Below, in pieces: positions 193 to 63,300 of a stretch of DNA of 64,000 nucleotides. Every line of letters starts with the position of its first letter. The stretch's first letter is position 1. The position numbers and the translations under genes were made by a program. The DNA is from a virus (lineage: Duplodnaviria > Caudoviricetes). The stretch spans positions 141,704 through 205,703 of the IMG/VR virus record IMGVR_UViG_3300025707_000003; one strand, 5' to 3'. A model generated the notes under the pieces. It worked only from the letters and a program-made list of their open reading frames with translations, ran no database searches and was not told where the DNA came from.

Positions 193-1080
193 TTAACCGT
201 TCGCTTCGAGTACAGTTAAAAGTCCAGAAGTAGTTTTGACTTTATTGATCTTCATTAGGTATTTCACCTCTAGTACTAAAATTACAGCGAAAACGGATGA
301 AATCCCTACTGAAGCGATAAGTTTAACTAAAGCTCCATTGGCAGGGGGAGGTAGGATTAGCTCTAAGATAATCTCGATACCTTCTCCTGGCAACATAGCC
401 ACTAAGTTGCTAAATGAAATTGTACCTAAAAGCCCTGCTACGACAGCTTTAAAATCAAAGTCTGCAAACCAATCCCAGATTTGGAAAAAGAGATAAATCT
501 TGATGGGTGCAGAAAGAGCTTTAAGGGTTCTTGAAGTTCCAAGAACACCATCAAGGAACTCACCTAGTTTGGTTGTACCTTGTTCTATTTTTGCTAGTGC
601 AGACTTTACAGAGTCTGGAACATAACTCTTATACTTGTTTATTAAATCTTCCCATCGGTTCTGTTCTTCTAACACCTCTCCAAGAAGACGAAGCAAAGGT
701 AGCTCTTTTAATATCTTTGTGGATAAACTACTGAGCTTTTTCTTACCCTCTTCAAGAAGGTCACCTAGCTTTTTGTCGATTTGTTTAATCATGGAAAACA
801 CATTTGTGGCTGTGACCCCTAACATAGATTTAAACTTTTGCCATGCTTGAGGTGCTTTCTTAAACAAAGTAATCAGTTTCTTCACCTTCTTCACTATCTT
901 CATAAATGCTTTTCTTTGAGTGAAGTCTTGGCGACTGTTCGCAGTTAAGTGTTTAGCAATAACTTGTATTGCTTCAATGGAAAGATCCGAAGAGGTTGCC
1001 CTCTTCAAGTTCGGACTTTGATCGTAGGCGACTTGACAAGCAATTCTAACCATATGTTGTTGTACTATTCTATCTAACAT
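193..1080 (-). CDS. Hypothetical protein with hydrophobic C-terminal helices and RIA-type N-terminal leader
   Basis: 295-aa ORF, antisense to its neighbours. N-terminus MLDRIVQQHMVRIAC...NLKRA; C-terminal hydrophobic stretches. Confidence 0.75.
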   Translation of the reverse strand: MLDRIVQQHMVRIACQVAYDQSPNLKRATSSDLSIEAIQVIAKHLTANSRQDFTQRKAFMKIVKKVKKLITLFKKAPQAWQKFKSMLGVTATNVFSMIKQIDKKLGDLLEEGKKKLSSLSTKILKELPLLRLLGEVLEEQNRWEDLINKYKSYVPDSVKSALAKIEQGTTKLGEFLDGVLGTSRTLKALSAPIKIYLFFQIWDWFADFDFKAVVAGLLGTISFSNLVAMLPGEGIEIILELILPPPANGALVKLIASVGISSVFAVILVLEVKYLMKINKVKTTSGLLTVLEANG

Positions 1081-2470: not shown

Positions 2471-3672
2471 AAATCACAGTATCAGCACAAGATTTAAAGG
2501 AAACTCTCTCAATCGCCCAAAACACATTGGGTGCAAACCAAGACATCACCTCACACTTTATCTTCACCATTGAGAATGCTGGAGTGAGCGTTATGGCTTG
2601 TTCTCCCCCTCGTCAGTTTTCAAAGATCCCTGTCATCGGTGCTACTGTTCAAGACGGAGGTTCTTTTTCTATTGAGGGGAAGCGTTTAATCTCAGCAACT
2701 AATGTTATGACAGGTGTTGTAGAGATTGAGTATAATGAGGAGGATAAAGAAGTTTCGTTAAAAGGTAGTGAGGGAGAAGCAACTACAATCTCGCTCGACC
2801 CAGAGTCCTTTCCCCCTTGGGTTGAAAAGTTCGGTCAAGCAACTAAAGTAGGAGAGATTTCTGCTTCCATTCTATATGATACGCTCAATACCAATAGACA
2901 GTATGTATCACAAGATGATAGTCGTAGACCAGAGCTTGCTATGATCTTGATTGAAGACGGAAAAGCCATTGCCTGTGATGGATTCATGCTTAATATGTCT
3001 CGACATGATGATCTTCAAGGAATGAATGTGAAGGTTCACTATAAGGACATTACACCATTGATGAAGTTCCTCAAGGCGTATGATGGAGGTATGATTGAGG
3101 TTCTTAGTGGAGGACAAGCTACCTTCTTTAAGGCTGAGGACAGTGCTTTATTTGCTGTGATGGACTTGCCATATACTTACCCTCCCATCACACAGCAATA
3201 TGCTGATGCCTTTAACTGGACTCCTCGTAGGGTTTGGATGTTGTCTAAGGAAAACTTTATGAATGGTCTTACCTTCTTATCAGCCTTTGCTGATAAGACT
3301 AACTTTAAGGTTTCTTTTAAAGACCCAGAAGATGAGGCTTTATTACCTCCAAGTCTTGAGATGAAGTCGTCTAATAGTAAGACTATTTCGTACAATCTTG
3401 AAGTGCCTCTTTTTGAGGACGCTGAGAAGCCACTAGAAGAGATCACAGACCTCTCTCACTTGATGTATGCTACTCGCCTTAAAGAAAAAGGTAAAGGTGA
3501 TGACATCGCCACTTTCGATTTTAACTATCTTTCGGTCAAAAAAGCAGTGGAAATATATAATGATAACATCGTCTTTGGATGTTCTCAAGAGGGCAATAAA
3601 GGTTATATGCTCTTTAAGTCAGACCAAGACTCTGGTGTACAGACTGTTTCTATTATAGGTTGGATGCTTTAA
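2467..3672 (+). CDS. DNA polymerase III beta-clamp-like processivity factor
   Basis: MKITVSAQDLKETLSIAQ N-terminus, ...LDPESFPP..., RPELAMILIE...IACDGFML match DnaN-like patterns; 401 aa. Confidence 0.7.
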   Translation: MKITVSAQDLKETLSIAQNTLGANQDITSHFIFTIENAGVSVMACSPPRQFSKIPVIGATVQDGGSFSIEGKRLISATNVMTGVVEIEYNEEDKEVSLKGSEGEATTISLDPESFPPWVEKFGQATKVGEISASILYDTLNTNRQYVSQDDSRRPELAMILIEDGKAIACDGFMLNMSRHDDLQGMNVKVHYKDITPLMKFLKAYDGGMIEVLSGGQATFFKAEDSALFAVMDLPYTYPPITQQYADAFNWTPRRVWMLSKENFMNGLTFLSAFADKTNFKVSFKDPEDEALLPPSLEMKSSNSKTISYNLEVPLFEDAEKPLEEITDLSHLMYATRLKEKGKGDDIATFDFNYLSVKKAVEIYNDNIVFGCSQEGNKGYMLFKSDQDSGVQTVSIIGWML

Positions 3673-3673
3673 T

Positions 3674-4294
3674 GTGATGAATGATCTTGCTTCTCGATTT
3701 TACCGATTAAAGGCTCTCAAAGAATCGTGTGAGAAACGCATAGACGATCTTGAAAATGAGATCGCTTTCCTTGAGCTTGATAAGGATAAAAAGACAGAAG
3801 CAGGAGTCATTCTCGACACTCTCGCTCAAGATGAAGTAGAGCGTGGTGTCTCGACCTATATATCCCTCTTGGAAGAGGGGTTAAAGGCGATATTCCCCGA
3901 ACAAGAGGTAGGGCTAACAGCCGAGATCTCAAAGGTGCGAGGGAAGGTAGCTGTTAACCTCAAGACTACCTTTAAGGGTCAAGATGGGCTTGAGATAGTA
4001 GGGGCTGGTTTAGATGCGTTTGGCGGAGCAGTGACCACTATCCAAAGCCTGTTGTTAAGAATCTCTCTTATCCTTAAAAGAAATCTTAGACCAATACTTA
4101 TTCTTGATGAGACATTTCCTGCTGTGGATGAAAATCGAGTAGAGATCTTAGTCGAGTTTCTAAAAATCCTGTGTCAACGATTGGATATGGATATATTGTG
4201 TATCACACATGACGCAACCATAGCTGATAACTGTGATATAGGATATAAAATATCCCCTAGTAAAAATGGTGCTACCTTAAAGAGAATCAAGTAA
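3674..4294 (+). CDS. C-terminal half of an SbcC/Rad50-like ABC ATPase
   Basis: Coiled coil, then signature-like DAFGGA, Walker B/D-loop ILILDETFPAVD and H-loop ILCITHD; no Walker A in the ORF. Confidence 0.8.
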   Translation: MMNDLASRFYRLKALKESCEKRIDDLENEIAFLELDKDKKTEAGVILDTLAQDEVERGVSTYISLLEEGLKAIFPEQEVGLTAEISKVRGKVAVNLKTTFKGQDGLEIVGAGLDAFGGAVTTIQSLLLRISLILKRNLRPILILDETFPAVDENRVEILVEFLKILCQRLDMDILCITHDATIADNCDIGYKISPSKNGATLKRIK

Positions 4295-4695
4295 TGAAAA
4301 AACAAGGATCTATAAGACATAAACTCAAGCAAGTTAAACATCGACTGCTTAAGAAAGCCATACGCAACGGTATGTCGAAGAAGCCTTGTAACTGCACTCA
4401 CTCTGGTCAAGTCAAAGGCAACGCTAACGATCCCCTTTTTTATGTCTGCCTACTAGATGCAGATAAACCTAAAGAGTGGGACGGGGTGATATGTGATCCC
4501 TCTGTTCCAAACACCTGTCCTTTTTTTAAATCAGAAAAAACAGAACAAGAAATCAAAGAAGATTTCGAGTTAGGGTTTGATAATCTCATCAATGAAGGAG
4601 ACATGGGTAATATAGCTAGTAAGTATCCCGATGTAGCCGCACTGTTATGGGTACTTGCAGAGAGCACCGATGAAACTGAGGATGGAAATGATTGA
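4294..4695 (+). CDS. Hypothetical Cys-rich protein
   Basis: 133 aa, CNCTH...C...C...CP, coupled to the previous stop. Confidence 0.7.
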   Translation: MKKQGSIRHKLKQVKHRLLKKAIRNGMSKKPCNCTHSGQVKGNANDPLFYVCLLDADKPKEWDGVICDPSVPNTCPFFKSEKTEQEIKEDFELGFDNLINEGDMGNIASKYPDVAALLWVLAESTDETEDGND

Positions 4696-5122
4696 AATAG
4701 TAGAACTAAAAGTGAAGGACAAAACACCCTTATTCTTAGAAGTAGATGTACCTCCTAAGTGTATGCCCTTACTCGTAGGTGACCCTAAAGGTGAAACCTT
4801 ACTTAAATGGGTAGAGAAACCATCTAATAGAGAGTCTGTACTTACATGGGGCATAGAAGCCTCTGTAAAGGAAGTTATAGAAGCTATGCTAGGGATTGCA
4901 CTAGATCGTAGTGAAAAAGAGCTGTGGGGCATAAAACAAGGCTCATTCACCGATGCTGAACAAAGGTTGAATGAGCTAGGTATAGATGAGGTGATTACCA
5001 CTGATAATGTGGTTCACCCTAAAGACCCCTCTATGTTGGGAACTGTCATTGTAGCAGGAGGGAAATGCTTCCCCGTCATCCACAATGTGAGTCGAGGAAT
5101 CTGTGTCTTAGACAAGGATTAG
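4688..5122 (+). CDS. Hypothetical protein
   Basis: Track ORF 4655..5122; ATG 4688 follows GAGGA and overlaps the previous stop. Confidence 0.7.
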   Translation: MIEIVELKVKDKTPLFLEVDVPPKCMPLLVGDPKGETLLKWVEKPSNRESVLTWGIEASVKEVIEAMLGIALDRSEKELWGIKQGSFTDAEQRLNELGIDEVITTDNVVHPKDPSMLGTVIVAGGKCFPVIHNVSRGICVLDKD

Positions 5123-5145
5123 GTTTTAGTACAGACGAATTGTAG

Positions 5146-5745
5146 TCACCCTCGGAACCTTTTGAACTCTTTAAGGAGTTTATTGAGTTTTCGAGTGAGT
5201 AAGTCAACATCTTCAGAAACACTCCCTGTAGATTTGACTTCAAACCCAACGCTCTTGGCAAAGTCCCAGAAACTATCAGGGATCTCACCACTGTCACCTT
5301 CGTCCTCAATACTAAGAGTCCATTTACCCGCATAAAAAGATAGGGTGATAAAAATAAATTTAGCGACCTCGTTGTCTACAAGAATCATTGCATAAGAATC
5401 GAAAGATTCGATAACATCTACAGTGTTCTCACCAAATACATCTTGAAGTTTTAGGAGGATGGACTCTGCTGAGAAAGGGGTTGGGATCATTTCAGCGGGT
5501 ATGATGCCACTGATCTGTCCCTTAAACTCAACTTCATCCGAGTCTGCATTCGCTTCGGTTATGTTCCAGCTCACATTTTGAAAAAGCTCTCCAAGTTCAT
5601 TTTGAAGTTTAATAGCTATTTCTCTAGGTGAGTCACTCTCATCAAACGAAAAGTTATCCATCAGATCGGTTATACTCGCTGACTTCTCAAGTCGTGCGAT
5701 ACGACTCTCAAGGTCATTAATAATTTCACTAGCTGATCTTCTCAT
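5146..5745 (-). CDS. MRRSASE-leader family protein (member A), acidic
   Basis: N-terminus MRRSASEIINDLESRIARLEKSA, shared with three genes at 45.9-49.0 kb; RBS GGAG. Confidence 0.85.
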   Translation of the reverse strand: MRRSASEIINDLESRIARLEKSASITDLMDNFSFDESDSPREIAIKLQNELGELFQNVSWNITEANADSDEVEFKGQISGIIPAEMIPTPFSAESILLKLQDVFGENTVDVIESFDSYAMILVDNEVAKFIFITLSFYAGKWTLSIEDEGDSGEIPDSFWDFAKSVGFEVKSTGSVSEDVDLLTRKLNKLLKEFKRFRG

Positions 5746-5806
5746 AAGGGTTCTCCATTTTGTTTAAGGTTAAAGAGATCACTTATGAGAAGATATAAAA
5801 GAACTA

Positions 5807-6724
5807 TTAAAAGTCGTAAGCTCTACGACCTCTAAAAGCATTTTCGTCTTCAAGAGATTCCTCAATTTCACCATAGTTCTCTTCATACCAATCAAGGTGT
5901 CCAGGTTCATCTACTTTAGACTTCTTGAAGTACGCAAGAACGATAGGCATAATGATCTCTAGGAGAGGTATAGAAGCAAGACCCCACCATGCAGGGTTCC
6001 CAGTTATGCTTACCATTGTTGCAGGAAGAACATAATGTTCGAGTGTTTCTACAATAGCCATTGCGATTGCTAGTAGGACAACCTTAAAGAAACGCTTAGA
6101 CCATTTTTTATACCAAATCTCATCTGCGTGTGGATCCCAACCCTTTGACTTGACGATATGGTAAGCGTGTTTGATGATCTCAATAGGGTTGATGACATTA
6201 AGAGCTTTCTTTAATGCTCTCTCAACAACCTTTTTGTCATGCTCTTGTGCCGCTTCTTGAATGATACGCTTTTTTACTTCGTTAGGTATTGGGCCATCAT
6301 TGGTGTCACCCCAAGTATAACCCTCGTAAAACTCTGGTGACTTGCCTCTCGGAGAGAACCAAGATTGACCATGTTCTCTCTCGCTTTGCCTAAGTTTAGC
6401 ACCTGTTTCAAATTCCTCAAAGTCAGCGTCTACTTCAGATTCCATCAGAGCTTCTGCATATTCTGGAGCGATTGCTTCGATAACATCATCCATGAGATCA
6501 TCAACAGGCATAGAGAAAAGGTTAAGATGCCTACGATACTTATCAAGTGGTTCTGCGACATACTTGAGGAAAAGACCTTTTAATGAGTCTGTCATTCCTG
6601 CTTGATATTCCATAGCCGCAACTTTAAGCTCAAGTCCTGCGATACGCTCCATTGTAGCTTGACGATTCATTGATGCTTGCCGATAAGAGCGTCTTGCTCT
6701 ACGATAACTGTTATCATGTCTCAT
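5807..6724 (-). CDS. Membrane-helix protein with Arg/Ala-rich leader
   Basis: 305 aa, RRARRSYRQA...MERIAGLELKVAAMEYQA, two hydrophobic segments; RBS AAAGGAG. Confidence 0.8.
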   Translation of the reverse strand: MRHDNSYRRARRSYRQASMNRQATMERIAGLELKVAAMEYQAGMTDSLKGLFLKYVAEPLDKYRRHLNLFSMPVDDLMDDVIEAIAPEYAEALMESEVDADFEEFETGAKLRQSEREHGQSWFSPRGKSPEFYEGYTWGDTNDGPIPNEVKKRIIQEAAQEHDKKVVERALKKALNVINPIEIIKHAYHIVKSKGWDPHADEIWYKKWSKRFFKVVLLAIAMAIVETLEHYVLPATMVSITGNPAWWGLASIPLLEIIMPIVLAYFKKSKVDEPGHLDWYEENYGEIEESLEDENAFRGRRAYDF

Positions 6725-6770
6725 GGTGGGTTCTCTCCTTTAAAGGGGTATCATATAACGATATCTAAAG

Positions 6771-7442
6771 ATGATTATAAAGGAACTACAAATGATTTTA
6801 GGACTCGACCCCTCACTCAGAAACTTCGGTTGGACTCTCATTCGTGATGACGGACACTTCTTGGATAAAGGCACAATGAAAACCGATGCCAAAACCATGT
6901 TCGTTGAACGCTACATCACCCTGCGAGAAGGTCTAAGAGAAATCGTACAACAAGTCAGAGCAGACCACCCAGAGGAGACTTTAAGGGTAGGTATAGAGTC
7001 CCCCATATTTAATGACCTTTTCTCAGAGGGGATGTATGGTCTATTCCTATATAGCAATGAAGCACTCATGCTTGAGAAATGCGATACGGTTTATTTGTCC
7101 CCTAATCAAGTAAAAGCCCATGCGGCCGCTTTCCTCAATAGACCCAAAGGTTGGAAGATGGGTAAAGGTGATATGGTAGATGCGGCTAAACAAGCTACCG
7201 ATGGTCAAGGGGCTAAGAGATGGAATAATCACCAAGCAGATGCCTTCTGGGTAGCTAAAGCCAGTAGCAGGTTTTGGCTCTTGGTCGAAGAAGAAATCAC
7301 CGTTGATGATCTCTCGGACTTAGAGCGTAAACACTTTACCTCTTTTGAACGCTATGTGCGTGGAAAGAAAGCTGGTAAAGTGAAGCGTAAAGGGATCACA
7401 CATAAAGAAGATGATCGCTTCTTTAGATGGTCGGAGACTTAA
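6771..7442 (+). CDS. ruvC: RuvC-like Holliday junction resolvase
   Basis: ILGLDPSLRNFGW (Asp1), VGIESP (Glu), HQADAFWVA (Asp). Confidence 0.8.
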   Translation: MIIKELQMILGLDPSLRNFGWTLIRDDGHFLDKGTMKTDAKTMFVERYITLREGLREIVQQVRADHPEETLRVGIESPIFNDLFSEGMYGLFLYSNEALMLEKCDTVYLSPNQVKAHAAAFLNRPKGWKMGKGDMVDAAKQATDGQGAKRWNNHQADAFWVAKASSRFWLLVEEEITVDDLSDLERKHFTSFERYVRGKKAGKVKRKGITHKEDDRFFRWSET

Positions 7443-7756: not shown

Positions 7757-8006
7757 CTTTGTCTCCTGTGCTTTTAAGCATACGGGTGATTTGGCAAGTC
7801 ATGTGAAGTAGATCATCTACTTCACATCTCATATCTGAAATTATATTAGCTTGCTCTACTGCTACACTTTCTATTTGTACCACCCCTTTATCTGTTTCAA
7901 ACACCTTGTCAACACTTTCTTTTGAACTACTGCCCTCTATACTTAGACCACTCACTAAAAAAAAACTAAAAAAAACCACCATTACTAATAAAACTAACTT
8001 CTTCAT
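7644..8006 (-). CDS. Protein with N-terminal signal/TM segment
   Basis: MKKLVLLVMVVFFSFFLVSG; ATGA-type coupling to 8003..8308; 3' end overlaps the next gene by 113 nt. Confidence 0.55.
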   Translation of the reverse strand: MKKLVLLVMVVFFSFFLVSGLSIEGSSSKESVDKVFETDKGVVQIESVAVEQANIISDMRCEVDDLLHMTCQITRMLKSTGDKDVRRECKPRASNHQPTCRSGVTHRGGDVYHLTTTTER

Positions 8007-8308
8007 GGATTCTTACCCTGCTGGCGTAAAACCCATTGATAAATCTCTCGCATCATAGCGTTTTGTTGATTTAAGTCAGCCCTCATCTGCCTCAACTCTT
8101 GGCTGTTAAGTTGGACTTGATTCAAATCCTTCTCAATACGCTCAATCTTACTATCTAACTTCTCCACAACTCTCGCTTGAGACTCCGATTTCTGCTCCAT
8201 TAACTTCAAACTAGTACTCATGTTGAACAAATAAATGATTACAGGTATCAGGAAAACAGATAACACCTTAAAACCCCACTCAAGTGCGTTCTTCATAGAC
8301 TCGGACAT
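8003..8308 (-). CDS. Single-TM coiled-coil membrane protein (holin/spanin-like architecture)
   Basis: TM VLSVFLIPVIIYLF followed by a long coiled coil; RBS AGGAG. Confidence 0.65.
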   Translation of the reverse strand: MSESMKNALEWGFKVLSVFLIPVIIYLFNMSTSLKLMEQKSESQARVVEKLDSKIERIEKDLNQVQLNSQELRQMRADLNQQNAMMREIYQWVLRQQGKNP

Positions 8309-10713: not shown

Positions 10714-11339
10714 TACTTCGCATCCGTATCTTCCTTCGGCTCGGTTTTCCCTTTTAGCTCGCTTATTTCTTTTAGGAGCTGATCACGCTCTGCTTTCAAG
10801 TGACTATTATTTTGGTAGTATGCGTTGAGGTGGTTGATCATGGTTTCTTTCGGTACGCCCTTCTTCTTGAGATGGAGGTCTTGAAGGGTAACACTCTGCC
10901 ATGTTCCGTTTGGGTTCTGACATTCAGCGAAACAAACTACAGAGACTACCTCTCCTTGCACCACTTCGCCAGTATAGGATCTGTAATAGTATATGTCTCC
11001 TGCTCGTGGTAGGTCAGAGCTTGAGAGCTTGGGGTCGGTGTGTACCTCTTTTGGATGAGGGGTCTTAGTAGGAATGTTTGGTTCGGAAATAGGCTCTTCG
11101 ACTGGTTCGGAATTATCTGGTTCCGAAGTCTCACTCCAAACGACAACATCCCCAAAAAGATCTAAGGGGTCTGCTTCGGCTGGGTTTCTAATCATGTCAC
11201 CGTCAAGAATAAAGTCTCCGTTCTTAATGCATTGGTCGAGGACCATCTTAAAACGAGCATCGCCCATTCTTTTAACGCCCAACTCCTGCTTCGCTACCTC
11301 TTTAGCCTTCTTGATCGTCAGCCCTATGAGTGCCTTCAT
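10713..11339 (-). CDS. Hypothetical protein with Pro/Glu linker
   Basis: 208 aa, RBS GGAGGG, coupled to the upstream stop. Confidence 0.75.
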   Translation of the reverse strand: MKALIGLTIKKAKEVAKQELGVKRMGDARFKMVLDQCIKNGDFILDGDMIRNPAEADPLDLFGDVVVWSETSEPDNSEPVEEPISEPNIPTKTPHPKEVHTDPKLSSSDLPRAGDIYYYRSYTGEVVQGEVVSVVCFAECQNPNGTWQSVTLQDLHLKKKGVPKETMINHLNAYYQNNSHLKAERDQLLKEISELKGKTEPKEDTDAK

Positions 11340-11773
11340 AGCTCGCCCTCCATACCATCGCCATAGTCGTCATCATCTAGGGCATAGTATTCATCCTCAT
11401 CATCGGCACTGTCAAAGTCGAGCATCTCCTCGACCATCTTCTTTAAGATCTGTGCTTTGATCGTTTGGTGGTGGGTTACCTCGACTGAGGAGATGCCATA
11501 GTGGTGTGCCATGTCCTTGACCTCCTCATAGTTCTCAAGTTCCTCTATGAATGACTTAGCCCATATCTTCGCATCGCTCTCACTTAATCTCTCACTGTGA
11601 GCTTCGGAGATAAGGTCTTGTAGGTGTCCACAGTTATTAGCGTATGTCGTCATATTACTAGTCTCTACTTTCTTGCCATTCATCATAGCTCGCCATCGTT
11701 TGTATATCCTCATTAAACTGCCTTCGCAAGAGGGAGGTCTTAGTTCGGATAGTTTGGTGATCTCCCCATCCAT
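11336..11773 (-). CDS. Hypothetical protein, acidic C-terminus (true start may be a downstream Met)
   Basis: 145-aa ORF; 5' end overlaps 11658..12032. Confidence 0.65.
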   Translation of the reverse strand: MDGEITKLSELRPPSCEGSLMRIYKRWRAMMNGKKVETSNMTTYANNCGHLQDLISEAHSERLSESDAKIWAKSFIEELENYEEVKDMAHHYGISSVEVTHHQTIKAQILKKMVEEMLDFDSADDEDEYYALDDDDYGDGMEGEL

Positions 11774-12032
11774 TTATTTGATTTGGGTCATGATCCTCAC
11801 CCCAACCTTGAGGGTTCTCTGATCGTAGGTTGATCCAAGCTCCAAGAGCTGACTCATATTGAGCCACCTCAGTGCTGAACTTACTGACCTCTGCCACCCA
11901 CTCGCTAGGGGTAGGAGGAACATCAAGATCAGCAAAGGCTCGCTCGATCTCTCTCCACTCCCCACGAAAAGGTTGGGGTAGGCTGTTTCGGATGGTGGCG
12001 TATTGTGCTCGTTGTTTTTCTATGGTCGTCAT
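11658..12032 (-). CDS. Hypothetical protein
   Basis: 124 aa, RBS AAGGAGG, promoter motif upstream. Confidence 0.75.
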   Translation of the reverse strand: MTTIEKQRAQYATIRNSLPQPFRGEWREIERAFADLDVPPTPSEWVAEVSKFSTEVAQYESALGAWINLRSENPQGWGEDHDPNQINGWGDHQTIRTKTSLLRRQFNEDIQTMASYDEWQESRD

Positions 12033-14896: not shown

Positions 14897-15439
14897 TCAA
14901 TAACTGATGTCTTTATGAGCTGGACTACTCTTATTGATCTTCTTACGACAGATGGGGCCGATAGCTTGCTTTAAGCTCGAAGGGTTAGTGAGGGGGAGAG
15001 CACATCTCGCACACTTGGCTTCACACATGATCTGTAGATTATCGGGCATCTCGAAGTCTTGGTCAGTAGATACTCCTAAGAGCCAGACGAGGGTTTCGTA
15101 GCCGATGTCGAGTCGGGGCTGATTGAGGTTCAGTCCGCATTGGATTCGGAGCGTACCTCTCTCATCGACTGTCCCGATGGTCTGATACACAGGGTCATAC
15201 AAGCTGTTAAGTCCATGTAGGTTAAGGCTCACTTCAACAGGTTCATTGACGGTCTGCCCCTTTAGACGAGTCGCCTTGTAGGTGAGGTGATTGTCCTTAC
15301 GCTCGTTGCCGAAGGTGAACACCCAGGACTTGGTTCTCTTGGACGGAAGGGCGACACCGTTATGGTCATGTGTCGCCCCGAAGAAAGGGGCTGTAAGGTG
15401 AGCGAGGAACTCACTAGGTTTTATCTCGACTTGCTTCAT
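14897..15439 (-). CDS. DUF6011-like zinc-finger protein (paralog 1)
   Basis: Start MKQVEIK at 15439 with RBS AAGGAG; CARCALPLTNPSSLKQAIGPIC. Confidence 0.75.
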   Translation of the reverse strand: MKQVEIKPSEFLAHLTAPFFGATHDHNGVALPSKRTKSWVFTFGNERKDNHLTYKATRLKGQTVNEPVEVSLNLHGLNSLYDPVYQTIGTVDERGTLRIQCGLNLNQPRLDIGYETLVWLLGVSTDQDFEMPDNLQIMCEAKCARCALPLTNPSSLKQAIGPICRKKINKSSPAHKDISY

Positions 15440-16011
15440 GGGTTCTCCTTTTCGATTAGTGCTTCGACCTCTATCAGAGCCTTGTCTACCCATGAGGGGG
15501 TCTCAGTCTCGTTGTGGTCTTTCAGAATGGATAGGTTCTGGTGGAGGTTGTAAGGAAGGAAGCTATAGTGATGTAAGGCTTGTTTCCACTCTTTGACCTC
15601 CAGTGGAGGAGAGAGGTCAAGGTCGTAAGCCTGATCCTCAAGAAGATCTCTTAACTCATCCTCTCGCTCGTCCTCATCCAAGTTTGGATCAAGGGTAGCC
15701 TTAGCCACTTCCTCATCAAACCATGAGCGTTTGACATCCCAAGGGTACACTCCATCCATGAGACAACACTCGCACAGTTCTGGGTCCGCTTCGTAGTCGT
15801 CATATCCGACCTGAAACATACGCCCTATCCGACCTTCTCCGCCACACTCTTGACACTCTACAGCGTCTGCGTAGGATGAGGATTGGAGGCGAGCCTTAGC
15901 TTCTTCGAGTGAAGCCTTAGCTGACTTCAACTTTTTGAGGTCTTGTTGGATCGCCTCAGTGAGTTGCTCGGAGGTGAAGTTTAGGTCTTGAAGTGAGGGG
16001 TAGTAGCTCAT
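15436..16011 (-). CDS. Hypothetical protein with CxxC...CxxC zinc ribbon
   Basis: CQECGGEG...CECC, RBS GGAG. Confidence 0.75.
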   Translation of the reverse strand: MSYYPSLQDLNFTSEQLTEAIQQDLKKLKSAKASLEEAKARLQSSSYADAVECQECGGEGRIGRMFQVGYDDYEADPELCECCLMDGVYPWDVKRSWFDEEVAKATLDPNLDEDEREDELRDLLEDQAYDLDLSPPLEVKEWKQALHHYSFLPYNLHQNLSILKDHNETETPSWVDKALIEVEALIEKENP

Positions 16012-16073
16012 GTTGGCTTCTCCATTTGGGAGTGATGGGGTGCGTGATTATTCTGCACCCCTCTTACATAGTC

Positions 16074-16091
16074 TTATAGATAAGGGGTTAC
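16074..16091 (-). promoter_or_regulatory. GTAACCCCTTAT promoter motif
   Basis: GTAACCCCTTATCTATAA, followed by a 7-bp stem-loop at 16037-16061. Confidence 0.75.
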
Positions 16092-16253
16092 GACTTCGTA
16101 CTTAGCTCACTACAATAGCATCACACCACCCTAGATTTCTCGCCCCAGGGTAGTAGGCATCGAAGTCAAAGGCTCTGCCCGAAGATAGACAAAGCCTCAC
16201 GATCTCTTAAATGCCCCTCTAAGAGCCTCCCGACCCCCAACCCACCCTAGCCC

Positions 16254-16778
16254 TTAGACCCCTCGACTTACCTTGCTCGATGAAGCCTTCTTGCGACATA
16301 CTGGCCCCATGCCATCGTCCACACTGTCTGGGTTGGTGAGCTTCTTAGCACACCGACAGCATTTAGAAGCACCCTTGATCTCAAGAGCGTCTGGAAGCTC
16401 CACCCCATTGTTGAGCTTCGTGATAAGCCACACGAGGGTACGATCTGCCACAGTCTTGCGATCAGCATCTACCACGCTCTTAGGGCTTGCCTTGTAGAAC
16501 CCTCTTGGGCTGACCGAGCCGATGAAGCCGAAGTCTGAGGAGTTATCCTTGCCGACCATGAGGTCGATGAGGACAGGGCTTTCAACAGTCCACCCACGAG
16601 GGCGGCGAGCCTTGAAGGTGAGGTGGGTATCACGCTCGTTGTTGTGGAGCGTGAATGTCCACGCCTTGCTTGAGGTTGATGGGAGAGCCTCGCCCGACTC
16701 GCTGTGGGTGTCCTTGCCACCGAAAGGGGCGAGGAGAGCTGGAAGGAAGTTGTCGGATGTGATGTTTACTGTGTTCAT
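16254..16778 (-). CDS. DUF6011-like zinc-finger protein (paralog 2)
   Basis: LMVGKDNSSDFGFIG, CCRCAKKLTNPDSVDDGMGPVC; full-length similarity to 14897..15439. Confidence 0.8.
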   Translation of the reverse strand: MNTVNITSDNFLPALLAPFGGKDTHSESGEALPSTSSKAWTFTLHNNERDTHLTFKARRPRGWTVESPVLIDLMVGKDNSSDFGFIGSVSPRGFYKASPKSVVDADRKTVADRTLVWLITKLNNGVELPDALEIKGASKCCRCAKKLTNPDSVDDGMGPVCRKKASSSKVSRGV

Positions 16779-23310: not shown

Positions 23311-24048
23311 CTACTTGCAGTTGTATTTACTGTAAAGTTGATCTTCCTTCTTCAGATTAAAGACGGTCTTGATGTCTACACTCCCATCTCTCTGAGGAAC
23401 AAACCCTACGAAGACACCCATATATTTATGGTTGATCTCCATCTCTCGATTACGCCTTCTCATATCGTCCATCTGCTTCTTGAGTTGATCACGAGACAAA
23501 GTTCTTTCAAACCATTCCCAGTTAGCTTTGATTTCTTCATGCTTTTCTTTATTTGCCATAGCGATTTCTTTAAGTCGGTCATAATCTCGCATACCCTCTA
23601 CTACTAAGGCATTCTGTGTATGCCAGTGCTTCACAACAGCCTCTACTTGTTTCATAGTCACGCCTCTCAGATCCATTCTAAACTGAGCGTGTTGAGAATA
23701 AGTGATATGTGGAATGTTGACTGGTATCTTTTTGTTATTTTTTCCGTATACAATCTCCTCACCCTCTACTCTCTCCCTCAATCTTCTAGGGTAAGTCAGA
23801 CCATACCAATCATTCCTATCTCTATTAGAAATGTCTTCTAACCCCTCTCGATTAGAATCTTGGTGTGTGACGACATTAAGATCCTCTAACACATCTTTGA
23901 CATACCTTAGCTCATCAATGTTAGCCTTATTATTCTTCGCCCTCTCAAGAATGATACAGGGATCTTGTGTGCCAAGACCTGGTGTTAAGTCAGCCTGTCT
24001 TTCGAGGCAAGCAATTCTTAATCTTAAATACGCTAGCTTGTCATACAT
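23311..24048 (-). CDS. RIA-leader protein with DUF4258-like (BECR/RelE-type RNase-like) domain
   Basis: MYDKLAYLRLRIACLERQA; YSQHAQFRMDLRGVTMKQV...IKTVF; antisense in a + strand run. Confidence 0.7.
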   Translation of the reverse strand: MYDKLAYLRLRIACLERQADLTPGLGTQDPCIILERAKNNKANIDELRYVKDVLEDLNVVTHQDSNREGLEDISNRDRNDWYGLTYPRRLRERVEGEEIVYGKNNKKIPVNIPHITYSQHAQFRMDLRGVTMKQVEAVVKHWHTQNALVVEGMRDYDRLKEIAMANKEKHEEIKANWEWFERTLSRDQLKKQMDDMRRRNREMEINHKYMGVFVGFVPQRDGSVDIKTVFNLKKEDQLYSKYNCK

Positions 24049-45601: not shown

Positions 45602-45899
45602 GCCTAAAAGTCGGAGACAAGATATAAGAGAGTTCTTAGTGATACACTTTAAAAGTGAATCACAACCACAGACTGTGGAGAACTGTCTGAACGCTTATAT
45701 CATACAGAGAGATTTGGGTGGAGACTATAAACTCAAAACCAACGAGGTTAAAACATCAAAACCCACTAGCAAAAAGTCTCGTGTTCGACTCAGAGATCAG
45801 ATCGCCCAAGAGCTAGGTGTGGTGAAGCAAATGGGTTTGATATGCCGTCTAAGATATGGTGTCTATGTTAAGAAGTACCCACCTAGCAGATCACCTTAA
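45600..45899 (+). CDS. Small winged-helix-like protein
   Basis: LGVVKQMGLICRLRYGVY C-terminal wing pattern. Confidence 0.5.
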   Translation: MPKSRRQDIREFLVIHFKSESQPQTVENCLNAYIIQRDLGGDYKLKTNEVKTSKPTSKKSRVRLRDQIAQELGVVKQMGLICRLRYGVYVKKYPPSRSP

Positions 45900-46442
45900 A
45901 CGCTTATTGATCTCCCTAACTAATGCAGAAGCGTCATCCTCTGGTTTAAAGTTCGTGTCTAACTCAAAGTTAAACTTCCTGTCTCTGGAACTCACAACCC
46001 AATTACCTTTAAAATCATCATACTCGATTTCGATCATTTCCGTTAGACTCAAACCCTTGCTCGGATAGATTTCGCCACGACCAATGTTTGAGTGTCCAAA
46101 AGTATAGTTTTGGAAATGGCAGTCTGTAAAAGGTTGTTTCTCTTCTAGGAGAGAAACTACTTTTTTGCCATCGTAATGAACCATCACATAGTCCTTAGTC
46201 TTAAAACGACCAGTGATTTCTACCTCCCCACTATTCCCGTCTTGCTTCTTGAACTCAACACTAGAGACATCCCAATCAACACCTGGGTTGTTCTCTTTGA
46301 GGTAACCAATCACATTTTCTTCTATTTCAGAAGCTGTCTCAAAGTACATCTCACTAGAGATAGGTAGCAACTGAGCTGACTTTTCAAGTCTGGCGACTCT
46401 TGATTCAAGGTCATTAATGATTTCTGAAGCTGATCTTCTCAT
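45891..46442 (-). CDS. MRRSASE-leader family protein (member B)
   Basis: MRRSASEIINDLESRVARLEKSA. Confidence 0.85.
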   Translation of the reverse strand: MRRSASEIINDLESRVARLEKSAQLLPISSEMYFETASEIEENVIGYLKENNPGVDWDVSSVEFKKQDGNSGEVEITGRFKTKDYVMVHYDGKKVVSLLEEKQPFTDCHFQNYTFGHSNIGRGEIYPSKGLSLTEMIEIEYDDFKGNWVVSSRDRKFNFELDTNFKPEDDASALVREINKRLR

Positions 46443-46451
46443 GGGTCATTC

Positions 46452-47015
46452 TCAATTCTTTCTATACTCAGCTATAGCAGGTGTAAAATACTCCGATAAA
46501 ATAACCTCTGAGACTAACCCCTTGCGTGTACTCTTGACTCGACCCAAAGTGTCTCGTAATTGTCTAATTTTTGATTCCATACAAAGACATATATTAGACC
46601 CTTTACCAAAATCTTCAGCGTCTAGCTCTAACCAGAAATCAATCTCGTATTTTATTCCCTTTATCATGAAAGAAACATCACCCCCCCCAAGTATGCTTTG
46701 AGAAATTTTCTCGTTATACATAGTCCCAATATTCATATCACTGCTGTTCATATGGAAGTTGTGTACTTTAATGTTTGTCGCACCTTTAGATTTAAGTGCT
46801 TTCATCATTTGTTTAGGGAAAGTCTTTTGTATTTCAATGTCCACACCCCTCGCATACGATAAAAGATATTTTCTCTGTTCATTTAAGTCGCCATAGTCAT
46901 AAGGATAGCCATCGTCTTCTGGATTGCCCTCCTCGTCTTCTGGATAGGATCGTTTTTCAAGTCTAGCGACTCTAGTTTCAAGATTACGGATTATTTCTGA
47001 TGCTGATCTTCTCAT
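46452..47015 (-). CDS. MRRSASE-leader family protein (member C)
   Basis: Start 47015: MRRSASEIIRNLETRVARLEKRS. Confidence 0.85.
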   Translation of the reverse strand: MRRSASEIIRNLETRVARLEKRSYPEDEEGNPEDDGYPYDYGDLNEQRKYLLSYARGVDIEIQKTFPKQMMKALKSKGATNIKVHNFHMNSSDMNIGTMYNEKISQSILGGGDVSFMIKGIKYEIDFWLELDAEDFGKGSNICLCMESKIRQLRDTLGRVKSTRKGLVSEVILSEYFTPAIAEYRKN

Positions 47016-47061
47016 AATGGACACACCTTTCATCTAAAAGATGACGACAATAAATAAACTA

Positions 47062-47922
47062 CTAATCATTGGTTTCACACAAGCCCCACCTAAAACAACC
47101 GATTTCATCTCTTCCTAGTTGTTCATCTGTGAAAAGTTCTTGTAATCCGTCTTGTTTCCCTTTAGCCCAAGATACCGCTTGCCTTATGTTTCCTTTCTTG
47201 AAGAAAGTGGCTTGACTCCCTCGCTCCTCAGATACTCTCTTCTCTAAGTTCTCTAAGTAGTCTATACGATCTGGATCTATTCTAGCCATATTACGAATGT
47301 CTGCTTTATTGGAGTATATACAAGGCCAACATCCAACTCTACTAGAACCCTTTAGATATAGAGGGTTTGGAGAAACACCGTTTTTCTGATGAATGTAAAT
47401 CACATCTTCTTCTGACCATTCTAAAATAGGTCTGATTTGTGTCGCTTCGTCTTGCTCCTCTACATATCCAAAAGTAGATCTTCTGATCGACTCCCCTCTT
47501 CTAATACCTGTGATGTTAATGGGGAACTTTCGGTTCTTTAAGAAAACCTCCACTGCGTAAGTTCGATAACTTACAAGTTTAAGCTCATTAGTACACCATT
47601 TTAAGCGTCCATTCGGGAACATTTTTTTCTGTAATACAGCACTCTCCATACCATAAGCATGATCTTGGTAGTTGAGTTTTTCATTTTGAAGTTTGACTAC
47701 TTCAACCCCCAAAATATCACTAAGGGTATCTACATACTTATATGTCAAAGGGTGTTCCCACCCAGTGTCGCAAAACACTGGAGTGAAAGGTATGTTATGT
47801 GTTTTTAACAACAACCCGACTGCTGTAGAGTCTTTTCCCCCACTACAACTTAAGATTAGAGGTCGATCTGTTTCTTTTAAGAATGCTATCGTTTCTTTTT
47901 CAGTGTTTAGTTCTAATGTCAT
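47062..47922 (-). CDS. PAPS reductase family (PP-loop) protein
   Basis: SCSGGKDS, FCDTGWEH, KWCTNELK, TGIRRGES, RPILEW, RVGCWPC. Confidence 0.9.
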   Translation of the reverse strand: MTLELNTEKETIAFLKETDRPLILSCSGGKDSTAVGLLLKTHNIPFTPVFCDTGWEHPLTYKYVDTLSDILGVEVVKLQNEKLNYQDHAYGMESAVLQKKMFPNGRLKWCTNELKLVSYRTYAVEVFLKNRKFPINITGIRRGESIRRSTFGYVEEQDEATQIRPILEWSEEDVIYIHQKNGVSPNPLYLKGSSRVGCWPCIYSNKADIRNMARIDPDRIDYLENLEKRVSEERGSQATFFKKGNIRQAVSWAKGKQDGLQELFTDEQLGRDEIGCFRWGLCETND

Positions 47923-47942
47923 TGTTCTACCTTTTTAAGAAG

Positions 47943-48003
47943 AGGTTTAATGACATTATACTATTTAAGGTTTAATGACATTATTATACTATTTAAGGTT
48001 TAA
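47943..48003 (-). repeat. Tandem duplication of a promoter-like unit
   Basis: AGGTTTAATGACATTATACTATTTA (25 nt), a 28-nt copy with an extra TTA, then a partial third copy; minus strand reads AAACCTTAAATAGTATAAT. Confidence 0.75.
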
Positions 48004-48112
48004 AATAATCGAATAACCTTTTCCAATCAAGAGGGTGTTTTAATCTGCCGAACTAGTTGTAAGCGATCTTTTGGATCATCTGGTAGGAGATGTGACATCC
48101 AACTTGGTGGAT

Positions 48113-49027
48113 TTAATAATACAGTCTTCTCATAGGTCTAGTGATTGGGCTTGGTCTTCTAACAAAACCATCGTCAAGTCTAGCAAATCTTTTCTTTTCA
48201 ACAGGGTACTTTTTAACTTTAGCTCTGTACTTTGTACCTAACTTGCCCTCTACTTTACCTAGAACTTCACCTCTAGCGATTTCTACAGCCTTAACACCTG
48301 CTGGGTTCGCCAACTTACCATAAGCACTTGCACCCACAAAAAGACCTGTATCTTGATCTTCCCAAAGAACAAAGAAATGGAACTGACCTGCTCTTGAACC
48401 TACTCCCTCTAAATACATTGTACCAATCTCATTATAGTTAGATACACCTGTTTTACTTTCAAGTGCTTGGTAAGCCGATCTGGATAACGCTTCTGTTTTT
48501 GATAAATTATCAGAAGAAATCTCGTTATCAAGTTCCTTTTGTTTCTTATAGTTCTCTCTTCTTCTTGCCTTATCTTCACCCATAGCTTTAGGTTTCGATC
48601 TTGGTTCTCTCAAAAACCACCCTTGATCTTCGGCGTGTTCAGCTTCGCCCACATAACCAGGTTTACCAGACTTTCCCCAACACTCTTTGTGGAAAACTGA
48701 AAAAGGAGCATTTTTCGCACTGCCGAGAGGTAGTCGTTTACCATTCATATTATAGTATCCGTCATAAGCCTCATCAATCTCAACTTTGCCGTTTGGGTGG
48801 ACAACGACCAACTCACTCATCCATTTAGACTTATCAGACCATGCTTTAGGTTGTTTTGGAGTACGAACACCTGGGATAACAGGTAGGGGTGTTGTGTCCC
48901 ATTTAAAGTGGGAAATGATAGACTTGCCACAAGCCATACATTTCCAAGAACTGAACCCTGCTGTTTTTTCAAGACGAGCGACCCTTGTTTCAAGATTATG
49001 GATAATTTCTGATGCTGATCTTCTCAT
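48113..49027 (-). CDS. MRRSASE-leader family protein (member D), Cys/His domain + WGR-like domain
   Basis: MRRSASEIIHNLETRVARLEKTA; CMACGKSI...YDGY...HKECW...DQGWF; FHFFVLW...SAYGKL...KLGTKYRAKVKKY. Confidence 0.85.
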   Translation of the reverse strand: MRRSASEIIHNLETRVARLEKTAGFSSWKCMACGKSIISHFKWDTTPLPVIPGVRTPKQPKAWSDKSKWMSELVVVHPNGKVEIDEAYDGYYNMNGKRLPLGSAKNAPFSVFHKECWGKSGKPGYVGEAEHAEDQGWFLREPRSKPKAMGEDKARRRENYKKQKELDNEISSDNLSKTEALSRSAYQALESKTGVSNYNEIGTMYLEGVGSRAGQFHFFVLWEDQDTGLFVGASAYGKLANPAGVKAVEIARGEVLGKVEGKLGTKYRAKVKKYPVEKKRFARLDDGFVRRPSPITRPMRRLYY

Positions 49028-49100
49028 AATGGTTTTCTCCTTTGGGTTTAAATCATATAAACATGGTGACCAATAAACAAATTACAAAAGGATTTGAATC

Positions 49101-60379: not shown

Positions 60380-63300
60380 CTAGTCCCTCCCATGATTTTA
60401 TCTTGTGCTTTTTTGATTTCGTTCACAACTTGACGACCAGTGTCCACAGGGTTCTTTGATCCATCAACAGTGATTGAGATGTTAAAGTTCCCACCTCCAC
60501 CTCCACCTCCATATTTAGAGATGGCTTGATCTACATAGTTATTGACAGCCCCACCTGGTTTGGTCATCGCCATTGCACCACCACCTAAAGGGGAGGGGAG
60601 ATCTTGAGGGTCAATGCTCCAAAGATTGCCTCGTCCATCAAGCCAAAAGTCCTTCTTTTTTTTAGCTTTAGCTACTATTTTTTTAGCTTTAGTTTCTGCT
60701 GGAGTACCTGCTGTGTTACCTGCTGTAGTACCTGCTGGAGTACCTGCTGTGTTACCTGCTGGAGTACCTGCTGTAGGAGTTCCTGCTGTAGCAGGTGTAG
60801 AGTTAAAGCCTAATAGAGATCTTGCCGCTTGATTGCCAGTTAAAGCCCTACTATTAACCATACGCTGTATCCCCTCTTCTCCTTTTCTCTTTTGATAAGC
60901 GTCATAGACCTTTCCAGCGGAAGCCTCTTTACCTAAACCAAGCATATCTCGCATCTCTTGTATCTCTTTATCTTCCATTTCTTTTTGGGCCTGAATATAC
61001 GCATTTTTTGCAGTTTCTTCCTCTATCTCTTGTCTTGCTTTAGCGTCTACCTTCGCTTGGTTTTGGAGGTCTGATTTCTTTAATGGAGCGTTTAACTCTG
61101 CGACTGCCTCTTTCGATAGTTCTGCATTTACATCCTTTTCACTTATGTTTTTTCCAATCTCCTTATCCCATACATCTTCAACTAAAGTTTTATCCTTTCC
61201 TTCCTTATCCTTCCCTATTAGTTTCCTGGTAGATTGACCCATCGCCATACCCTTAGAAGAAAGATCCAATCTCATTTCATTTTGTGCCATAAATTTCAAT
61301 ACTTCGGGAGACATTTCTTCTCTCTTTGTAGTAGTAATATACTTCATAAGATCACGATGCGTACCCCCTCCTATAATATCTGCGATAGGGGCAAACTGTT
61401 TAGCGATCTTATCCACTGCTTCCCCTAAAGCACCCTCCTCTTTACCTGTCCTCGCTCTTGTTTTTAGTGCTGTGTCGCCACTCAATCTTAGCATTTCCTC
61501 TTTGGTCTGAGTTCCAACTCCTAAATGATACGAGGTGGTCTGCAAGTTCCTTAACTGTTCTCTTGATCTACCCTCTCTTGCCTTTAACTCAACTAGATCT
61601 TTTTCTTTCTGAGCTAGTGCTTTTTGGTCAGCCTCATACTTTTTCTTCTCCTTACCGTCCATTTTCTTTTTAAAAGACAAACTGTGGAGTCTTTCTTTTT
61701 CAGCCTTAATCTTAGCTTCTTCTAACTTTTTCTCCTCAGATAGAGCTTGGACTCGCTCTCCCACGAGTTCTAAGGCATCTTTTCTGTTCTGTTTCTCAGC
61801 AGGATTAGCCCCCTTACCAGAGAAGAAAGACACCATATTATATATCCCACCCGAAATGTCATTCAAGATCCCTGCTATCGTGTTATTCAAGACATCGAAT
61901 ACAGAGGTAGTTGCTTTGATTCCTTCAGATAAATACTGCTCTTGGGTTTTAGCCGCTTCTTCTGGTTTGAGTCCTTCAAACTTAGCCTCGTCTTGTGCTT
62001 GCAAGTAATCAGAGAAGTTATCAACAGCCGTCTTAGTTGATAAGGAAATAAGTTTACCGTCTTTTGCTTCCAACCCTTGTTTCGCTAAGAAGGTCTTTTC
62101 CTCTGAAGTAAGTTTTCTATCGTCCTTATTAGCCACCTTAGCGATTTCTTCGGCTTTCCTCATATCACCCTTCATTGTTGTTTGAAGTTGGGCGAACGCT
62201 TCTATTTGCTCTTTAGTGACATCAAACTTAGTTAACATTTCTTTTGTAACCACGCCTGCATCATTTAAATCCTTGTCTCCAATCCTAGACTCGATCATAG
62301 AAAACTTAGTCTTTAAGTTTGCCGAGGCCCCCTGCTCTTCTTGAGCACCTTGCACCTCTGCCGATGTCGCTTTATCTTTTGTACCTCTAGCAAGCCTTAT
62401 GAACTTATATAGTTGATCGGTGAACTCTCCAGTTGCATCCTCCCCCCCTACTTCTTTCATCCTCGAAAATAAGTCCTGTCTTCCCTTATTATCAAGATGT
62501 GCTAACTTTTTGATCAGATCTGCTTCATCTTCCGCACCTAGCGTTTTATCCTCCATAAGTTTTTGCATCATGCCCCCTTTCCCAGTCTCACCCCCGAAAG
62601 ACTCCTTAAAGGATTTCCCAAACTTAATCGCTTCTACCTTTAATGTCTTTTTGACTTCCTTTGACTTGGCCAGCATATTACGCTTCATTTGTTCAAGGTA
62701 TCCCTCACTTCTGAACCCAGAGAACAGAGATTGTAGAGCTTTATCTAGTCCACTCTTACCAAGGACAGAAGCGAATCTAAGGAATAAAGTACCAGCTTCT
62801 TTTGTTCTGTAGTTCATGTTCTCAAGTTGGTCAGTGAGTTCTTGTACCTTCTTGAAAAAGTTCCCTGTAGAGTAGCTTGATTGTAAAGCCATATCTCTAA
62901 TGTTGGCAAAGTCTCCTGCCATTTTGCCAATAATAGAACCGTCTTTAGCAGACACCCCTAAGTCATGTGAAAACTTAGCCATGTACCCTTGGGCTTCGTC
63001 CATCGAGATACCAAGACCAAAAGCCATACCCTTAGCTGACTTCATGGCTTCTTTCATTTTCACCATGCTTGATTCTTCACCCCCAAACTGTTTGATACCC
63101 ATATTCAAACTATTAAAACCAGCCACTAGAGCCATCGTATCTGCAAGGGGTATACCCATAGCGTTGGCAAAGTCTTTATCTCTAAAGGTGTCTCTTACTT
63201 TCTCAAGATTTTTCTGTGTGTCTCCTGTCCCTAATTTAATATCGTCAATCGCCACACCACCCTCTAAGAGAGCTTTATTTGCTTCGAGGACAGTTCCCTC

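Follow-up and report, generated by a model that had tools for sequence, protein, structure and literature searches.

Four open reading frames (ORFs) on the minus strand of a 64,000-nt stretch of DNA from the Caudoviricetes record IMGVR_UViG_3300025707_000003 share the opening MRRSASEII..LE.R[IV]ARLEK-x-[AS]. The stretch, analysed at its full length and referred to as the window, originates from an uncultured huge marine phage. The shared N-terminal residues are here called the leader or tag, and the part of each protein that follows them its cargo. Gene A (5146-5745, minus strand) encodes 199 aa, starts with MRRSASEIINDLESRIARLEKSA and has leader residues 1-23 at nt 5677-5745. Gene B (45891-46442, minus strand; 183 aa; N-terminus MRRSASEIINDLESRVARLEKSA; leader at nt 46374-46442) starts 9 nt past the stop of gene C (46442-46452), making the two a tandem pair. 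Gene C (46452-47015, minus strand; N-terminus MRRSASEIIRNLETRVARLEKRS; leader at nt 46947-47015) encodes 187 aa when read from the ATG at 47015, beyond which its longest ORF extends to 47033. Gene D (48113-49027, minus strand; N-terminus MRRSASEIIHNLETRVARLEKTA; leader at nt 48959-49027) encodes 304 aa.

The initial annotation of this DNA, made from the sequence alone, had described nearly the same 23 residues at the start of four different proteins. The shared opening and the end of the similarity at residue 23-24 are both borne out. At the start of the leader 17 of 21 positions are invariant in genes A-D, and DNA identity over the 69 nt past codon 23 is 23-33%, which is chance level. A hidden Markov model (HMM) built from the four leaders gave its own members 56-61 bits, against 4.3 bits for the best other segment in six frames, hence the shared leader is not a product of chance. 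The claim of four different proteins stands only in part. The cargos of C and D are related neither to those of A and B nor to one another, but A and B gave a local alignment of z = 6.5 that none of 300 shuffles reached. The cargos of A and B are thus distant paralogs, and there are three cargo families instead of four.

None of the four genes could be assigned to a Pfam or PHROG family. The cargo of gene A is an acidic orphan (pI 4.2) and that of gene C is also an orphan. The cargo of gene D is basic (pI 9.6) with a Cys/His cluster; it has just two relatives among 5.8 billion proteins, and a search of the ESM Atlas returned no match better than chance. Among 50,697 GenBank phage records there was neither a DNA nor a protein match to the window region or gene B.

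A portable two-part tag on unrelated proteins

The leader retrieves 45 loci in IMG/VR. One of these lies on a record of 375,691 bp, rated 100% complete and designated G001, which was analysed whole. G001 encodes approximately 31 tagged ORFs of 108-310 aa. Furthermore, a de novo search that was blind to the tag and looked for shared N-termini on dissimilar proteins recovered 25 of these as its sole large group. A census profile was built from the 31 leaders and run against 1.84 billion cluster representatives, where 1,102 proteins matched with E <= 0.001 and 127 of them with E <= 1e-10. The tag is real, non-random and widespread. The leader peptide string has no occurrence in the searchable literature, and the only GenBank relative found through core genes of the clade is one uncultured phage of 485 kb (LR745208.1).

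The 150 best matches of the census are uniform at their start and diverse thereafter. The match begins at residue 1 in about 145 of them, and the 142 cargos they provided fall into 118 groups unlinked by BLAST, with a median cargo length of 116 aa. Pfam domains occur in just two of the 150, namely WGR and HAD_SAK_1, and none of the cargos contains a membrane-type hydrophobic run. This agrees with the earlier proposal of a portable tag on varied proteins. A Tat or Sec signal was considered as the identity of the leader and ruled out by the absence of a hydrophobic core.

Conservation of the tag stops sharply at residue 23, the last of [KR]-x-[AS]. Of 144 copies, 116 have Q at position 22 and 142 have A or S at position 23; position 21 is K or R, and position 24 favours S, G or T, after which the residues are random. 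Residues 5-23 have a hydrophobic moment reached by 1-3% of shuffles, and A5, I9, L12, I16, L19 and A23 lie on a single a/d seam of a helix of about 2.7 heptads. The suggestion that the leader forms an amphipathic helix is in accordance with this pattern.

The two halves of the tag behave differently. The second half, R[IV]ARLE[KR]Q[AS], is found alone and internally, 90-160 residues into the protein, in about 12 proteins. The first half (MRRSASEII..LE) is never internal by itself, being N-terminal apart from whole leaders at the joints of gene fusions. It is also clade-specific, whereas the second half is common to related clades, which alter the first half to MNKVSAQQIRSLEMRIARLEREAG in G012 and to MISQKLASLEARIAKLEQSS in G011. 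In four independent cases (P0041/P0008, P0009/L044, P0027/L020 and L021/P0012) the domain behind an internal half-tag is the same as that behind a full N-terminal tag elsewhere, and the boundaries agree within a few residues. L021 from contig G004 is exemplary, as its 433 aa comprise three modules where one joint is a half-tag and the next a full tag with Met replaced by Asn. Multi-module fusions such as L021, with its three tags, could arise from tandem tagged genes like C and B. The position of the second half at exact module boundaries is what would be expected of a processing or docking unit. The element is, as observed, an N-terminal tag that is portable, consists of two parts and is under selection at the peptide level.

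The same cargo domain can thus stand behind a full tag, a half-tag or other domains. This bears on the notion of an ordinary paralogous family with one fold that includes the N-terminal helix, to which we give almost no credence. The distant paralogy of the A and B cargos speaks for such a family, but the notion is already contradicted by the unrelated cargos of C and D, and in the 142 cargos and their 118 unlinked groups the leader is not an integral part of one shared fold.

Late-type promoter and constraint on the start region

G001 has 71 copies of the motif TAGTTTNTTTAT, compared to 9.8 in shuffles, and 63 of the 71 are located no more than 150 nt upstream of a gene start, typically at 30-55 nt. 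The motif precedes most of the tagged genes in G001, together with an amidase, a topoisomerase IB (Topo IB) and a C39 peptidase, and is also found upstream of genes adjoining Baseplate_J and the large terminase. Its presence ahead of both tagged genes and genes in structural neighbourhoods is in keeping with a late or structural class. Within the window, the motif lies ahead of gene A (TAGTTCTTTTAT, 5795-5806, minus strand), gene C (TAGTTTATTTAT, 47050-47061) and gene D (TAATTTGTTTAT, 49073-49084), as well as ahead of 5807-6724, 193-1080 and 8003-8308.

The upstream module of gene A (5746-5806, minus strand) consists of the late-promoter-like motif followed by a conserved 5' leader of about 49 nt before the ATG. 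A conserved 5' leader of about 50 nt is also found at 365934-365993 in G001 and in the L003 and L013 copies. The first 13 nt in gene A, AUCUUCUCAUAAG, are perfectly complementary to CUUAUGAGAAGAU, a segment containing the start codon and leader codons 1-4, and the pairing spans the spacer too (minimum free energy -21.5 kcal/mol, z -5.6). In gene A and a minority of its relatives the presumed transcript can pair through its first 13-22 nt with the ribosome-binding site (RBS), spacer, start codon and codons 1-4, with duplex energies of -16 to -25.6 kcal/mol and z-scores of -3 to -7.4 for the whole-leader fold. In L003 and L013 the spacer between RBS and ATG is now complementary to the 5' box. 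Such pairing may explain the invariance of ATGAGAAGAT. Strong pairing is restricted to about 7 of 58 copies, most being weak. RNAalifold gave no consensus structure for 28 upstream-plus-leader regions, and no Rfam family was found in the window.

Selection on the peptide had been proposed from synonymous differences between the leaders of A and B. These differ at 15 of 69 nt, in nine synonymous codons and one non-synonymous codon, among them two Ser codons (AGT/TCA) and two Arg codons (CGT/AGA and CGA/AGA), as described. The proposal holds for codons 6-23, which change freely at synonymous sites, but codons 1-5 and two Leu codons are constrained as nucleotides too. Among the 31 copies ATGAGAAGATCAGC and both Leu codons (CTT) are near-invariant, compared to a genome usage of 28-29%. 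At codons 2-3, 28 of 29 Arg codons are AGA (28% in the genome), and 21 of 22 Ser codons at codon 4 are TCA. CTT encodes Leu12 in 30 of 31 copies and Leu19 in 28 of 31 (58/62, 94%), compared to 50% for Leu before Glu genome-wide. The codons for Arg15, Arg18, Ala, Glu and Ile/Val vary in usage like the genome at large. The peptide reading thus holds for residues 6-23, and the start region is under an additional RNA or DNA constraint. The preference for CTT at the conserved Leu, which the window has in common with all relatives, was also seen in the internal half-tags (14 of 18).

It could be speculated that the conserved unit is a portable promoter, 5' leader and start region, serving late translation control and recombination of cassettes, with the peptide as a passenger. 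The near-invariant ATGAGAAGATCAGC and CTT codons, the shared upstream DNA and the pairing of the transcript 5' end with RBS, start and codons 1-4 in gene A and some relatives would be accounted for. This is nevertheless very improbable, as codons 6-23 combine free synonymous change with strict conservation of the amino acids, internal half-tags far from any start codon retain the peptide, and the strong pairing is rare and has no consensus fold.

Two core genes in the window have a degenerate version of the tag. One is a late gene (5807-6724, minus strand; late motif at 6777-6788) encoding 305 aa with a hydrophobic C-terminal region and a leader-like N-terminus (…MERIAGLELKVAAMEYQAG); the other (23311-24048, minus strand) encodes 245 aa with the tag MYDKLAYLRLRIACLERQAD. 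Both are present in G001, with 83% and 72% identity, respectively, whereas the cargos of A-D have no counterparts there. The canonical tag thus labels a fast-changing accessory set. Besides these genes, the window contains many large ORFs that lack a family, along with genes for a clamp, a PD-(D/E)XK nuclease and a PAPS reductase, and derives from a very novel large phage-like genome. The PAPS-reductase-family gene (47062-47922, minus strand; Pfam E 1.7e-27, PHROG 424) is situated between the tagged genes C and D.

A late gene at 193-1080 (minus strand; 295 aa), with the same promoter motif at 1121-1132, carries a second N-terminal tag, MLDRIVQQHMVRIACQVAY, of a class that we term RVAxxYM. At least nine late proteins carry the form RVAxRYM(K), in many cases with [KR]-T-A-[SG] behind it. 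Sites of the RVAxRYM class in G001 are 11335-11958, 15198-16274, 91902, 97191, 203249-203752, 261617-262650, 276239 and 372151. A conserved 207-aa helical protein carries the RVAxRYM tag and K-T-A-G at its N-terminus or, in some homologs, the tag at its C-terminus after K-T-A-S. This second class hints at a wider grammar of tags and joints. The 207-aa protein is encoded by a core gene beside a portal-like gene and was considered as a protease; it was rejected, the model being all-helical (pLDDT 69) with no match in the PDB. A late protein of 458 aa had no match better than chance in the ESM Atlas.

Two other genes of G001 deserve mention. The large terminase (3255-7340, minus strand) has 1,361 aa, with PHROG terminase matches at residues 497-577 and 1075-1241 and an endonuclease match at 246-408, and probably contains an intein or a homing-endonuclease insertion. 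The Topo IB (61721-63145, plus strand; Pfam Topoisom_I, E 1.3e-12) is of the eukaryote or poxvirus type and has the late motif upstream. It recalls the Topo IB of poxviruses, which is packaged in the virion.

The a/d heptad seam and the amphipathicity of the helix, its co-variation by clade while the end motif stays, and the occurrence of the RVAxxYM class at either end of a conserved helical protein would also suit a coiled-coil tag that docks proteins onto a hub other than the capsid interior, which might be the virion exterior, the cell envelope or some assembly or compartment within the cell. We regard this as improbable. About 30 different small soluble orphans per genome are hard to square with external structural roles, and the late promoters and the absence of membrane segments speak against it too. 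Genes for a compartment were not recognised, though no search was aimed at them.

A C39-type peptidase and the proposed role of the tag

The C39 peptidase gene in G001 (207274-208512) has a late-type motif upstream, and its product matches the full profile of Pfam Peptidase_C39_2 (PF13529) with 25.3 bits (cut-off 24). The first 176 residues, corresponding to the C39 domain, are 82-95% identical among the tag-bearing contigs examined, and IMG/VR has 74 contigs that bear C39. As an N-terminal domain it was found on 471 proteins; the 120 homologs listed are 242-691 aa long with variable C-termini. Catalytic Gln, Cys, His and Asp (Q14, C20, H103, D123) are conserved in the alignment. An alignment-based AF2 model (pLDDT 89, pTM 0.86) has leader-peptide peptidases as all of its ten best PDB matches, namely LahT150 with bound leader (6mpz; E 5e-8, TM 0.83 by target), PCAT1 and ComA. 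One homolog is named 'predicted double-glycine peptidase' in one source. With a predicted fold closest to bacteriocin leader peptidases, the protein is a candidate processing enzyme.

In 104 of the 120 homologs listed the C39 domain ends at GRQ[VI]MA|S, where the similarity stops. Judged by its residues, this junction resembles the [KR]-Q-A|S end of the tag. The C-terminal parts in the same set include HAD_SAK_1, Zeta_toxin/AAA_33, C70 and many orphans, and the arrangement looks like a self-processing carrier of variable effectors. A predicted complex between C39 residues 1-176 and a 45-residue N-terminus with the leader scored 0.00, which weighs neither way. A more distant genome, IMGVR_UViG_3300028177_000001 (62% GC), has a C39 that is 60% identical and a different tag of about 36 residues, MPKSLTASDRSSLIKLASSLEKGSEERKAILAGLKK-x-A. 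Four proteins whose cargos are unrelated carry this tag according to the de novo search, and a profile scan gave around nine to twelve copies (loci L144-L158), exemplified by 144370 (plus strand), 51718, 102301 and 48675 (all minus strand). Several copies end in K-x-A or K-x-S. It is plausible, based on the modelled fold, that a C39-type leader peptidase is the processing enzyme of the tag.

We consider it about an even chance (roughly 0.5) that the tag directs its cargo to the virion and shows where it is to be processed, after the manner of the T4 capsid targeting sequence (CTS) but on a far larger scale. The helix would dock the cargo inside the particle as it assembles, on a component such as the head core or scaffold, as the T4 CTS does. 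A phage protease, for which the conserved late C39-family peptidase is the best candidate, would then cleave the internal copies as well as the tag itself, at its [KR]-x-[AS] end or immediately beyond, freeing the cargo for delivery along with the DNA. We infer docking, packaging and cleavage, with its position and enzyme, from the tag with its modularity and two parts, the late-type promoter, the cargo diversity and the presence and predicted fold of C39 in relatives.

A bolder version, which we put forward only tentatively, is that a bacteriocin-type pair of helical leader and stand-alone C39 has been turned into a plug-and-play system for tagging, loading and maturing dozens of effectors per virion. 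Its grammar would be [clade-specific docking helix]-[KR]-x-A|S, used also to join polyprotein-like modules and to end the peptidase domain, and clades would differ in the helix and have the same peptidase family.

The half-tags at domain junctions, the fold nearest to leader peptidases and the GRQ[VI]MA|S junction behind the peptidase domain could also be explained by a signal for processing or maturation alone. C39 would remove the leader and internal copies would split polyproteins, governing timing, activation or release in the infected cell with no loading of the capsid. C39 peptidases do act on helical N-terminal leaders, as judged from the titles of PDB entries. However, one 23-residue helix is unlikely to inhibit more than 100 unrelated folds, leaving its removal by itself without obvious purpose, and the clade-specific and mostly N-terminal first half suggests a separate docking role. 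The tag moreover lacks Gly-Gly. A processing signal alone is accordingly a possible but doubtful explanation.

The kinship of the C39 fold with the peptidase domains of PCAT, ComA and LahT, and the name given to one homolog, also brings to mind a bacteriocin-type export leader, removed by C39 as the cargos leave the cell through a transporter of the host or the phage. Here too the leader lacks Gly-Gly. No ABC-transporter domain was present among the precomputed Pfam hits of the 120 listed homologs (of 471), and cargos of up to 300-570 aa, encoded by late genes of a presumably lytic phage, make export highly unlikely.

Several observations weigh against loading into the virion and processing by C39. 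C39 leader peptidases need Gly-Gly, or Gly-Ala or Gly-Ser, at positions -2 and -1, and no Gly of any kind is found at positions 22-23 in 144 copies of the tag. The distribution of C39 is wider than that of the tag: the tag profile matched nothing in seven more distant C39-bearing genomes, and in one of these, G014 (66% GC), the de novo search for shared N-termini yielded low-complexity noise only. No C39 was seen in the 64-kb window. The cleavage motifs of T4 and phiKZ are also present in shell and portal proteins, which is not the case for the motif of the tag; among other late or structural proteins of G001 the full second-half motif was absent outside the tagged proteins. The T4-type prohead protease (PF03420) is absent from four relatives including G001, and the HK97-type protease (PF04586), the T4-type capsid protein gp23 (PF07068) and PF03237 had no match in the relatives searched. 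Comparison of about 40 ORFs, late or large ones, with Pfam or PHROGs revealed neither a capsid protein nor a conventional prohead protease. These searches recognised only the large terminase, Baseplate_J, an amidase, Topo IB and C39, and the 25 families listed in a bulk PHROG scan of 137 ORFs are all replication genes.

Comparison with known systems

The T4 CTS, named as an analogue in the initial annotation, remains the closest one known (PMC9026906, PMC3012670). Like the tag, it is a short N-terminal peptide on otherwise unrelated and poorly conserved accessory proteins (IPI, IPII, IPIII and Alt), and its cargos are considered arms-race proteins (PMC9026906, PMC3012670). The CTS is in two parts, with residues 4 and 7 serving targeting and residues 8 and 10 processing, a split mirrored by the two halves of the tag (PMC9026906). 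The systems differ in that the tag has 23 residues instead of 10 and is found on about 30 genes per genome instead of about four. Furthermore, the tag is a heptad-type helix with a second half that is reused internally at domain joints. The T4 protease gp21 (S77) cleaves after Glu in (L/I)-x-E, whereas the tag has invariant L-E pairs that are not in this register. There is no sequence homology to the CTS or to T4 head genes, and no match to the gp21 or gp23 families in the relatives searched. As far as sequence comparison goes, the tag is not a member of the T4 system.

In the phiKZ-type phage SPN3US, gp245 (motif A-X-E) removes N-terminal propeptides, some of 20-24 residues, from many head and ejected proteins (PMC10052503). 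These propeptides have no one shared sequence, and the three-residue motif occurs in shell and portal proteins as well, whereas the tag is confined to its set of cargos. The tag does not fit the phiKZ/SPN3US motif (S/A/G)-X-E, as its A-R-L-E has Ala at P4.

Double-glycine leaders, which are processed by C39 peptidases (PCAT1, ComA, LahT), resemble the tag in that an amphipathic helix of about 15-25 residues stands at the N-terminus of diverse cargos, and these very enzymes are the nearest solved structures to the C39-fold peptidase that the phages encode. The tag differs by ending in [KR]-Q-[AS] with no Gly-Gly, and its cargos are folded proteins of 70-300 aa. Among the 120 homologs listed, the phage C39 either forms a protein of its own or precedes variable C-terminal domains, none of which is an ABC transporter.

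The polyvalent proteins of phages and conjugative elements, said to have been described by Iyer et al. in 2017, are reportedly multi-module effectors delivered with the DNA, often with peptidase domains and thought to be cut apart. Here most are single small genes with a common tag, and fusions are a minority with a defined 9-residue motif at the joints. A short conserved peptide that directs diverse cargo into an HK97-fold shell is also known from encapsulins, where the cargo-loading peptides are mostly C-terminal, uncleaved and present on one or few cargos. No encapsulin is involved in the tag system.

The present analysis contributes the two-part architecture, the reuse at junctions, the variation between clades, a census of the tag and C39 as a candidate enzyme. 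A tag in two parts, reused where domains join, sets out a concrete and testable code for cleavage and docking, and a maturation enzyme of the C39 type would be unusual in a tailed phage. As a simple sequence handle, the tag could lead through its 1,102 clusters to candidate host-takeover and anti-defence proteins in marine metagenomes. If it does load the particle, uncultured phages of 300-400 kb deliver around 30 different fast-changing proteins along with their DNA, and such an injected arsenal would be far larger and more modular than the internal proteins of T4. Foreign proteins might then be packaged by means of the tag, as has been done with the T4 CTS.

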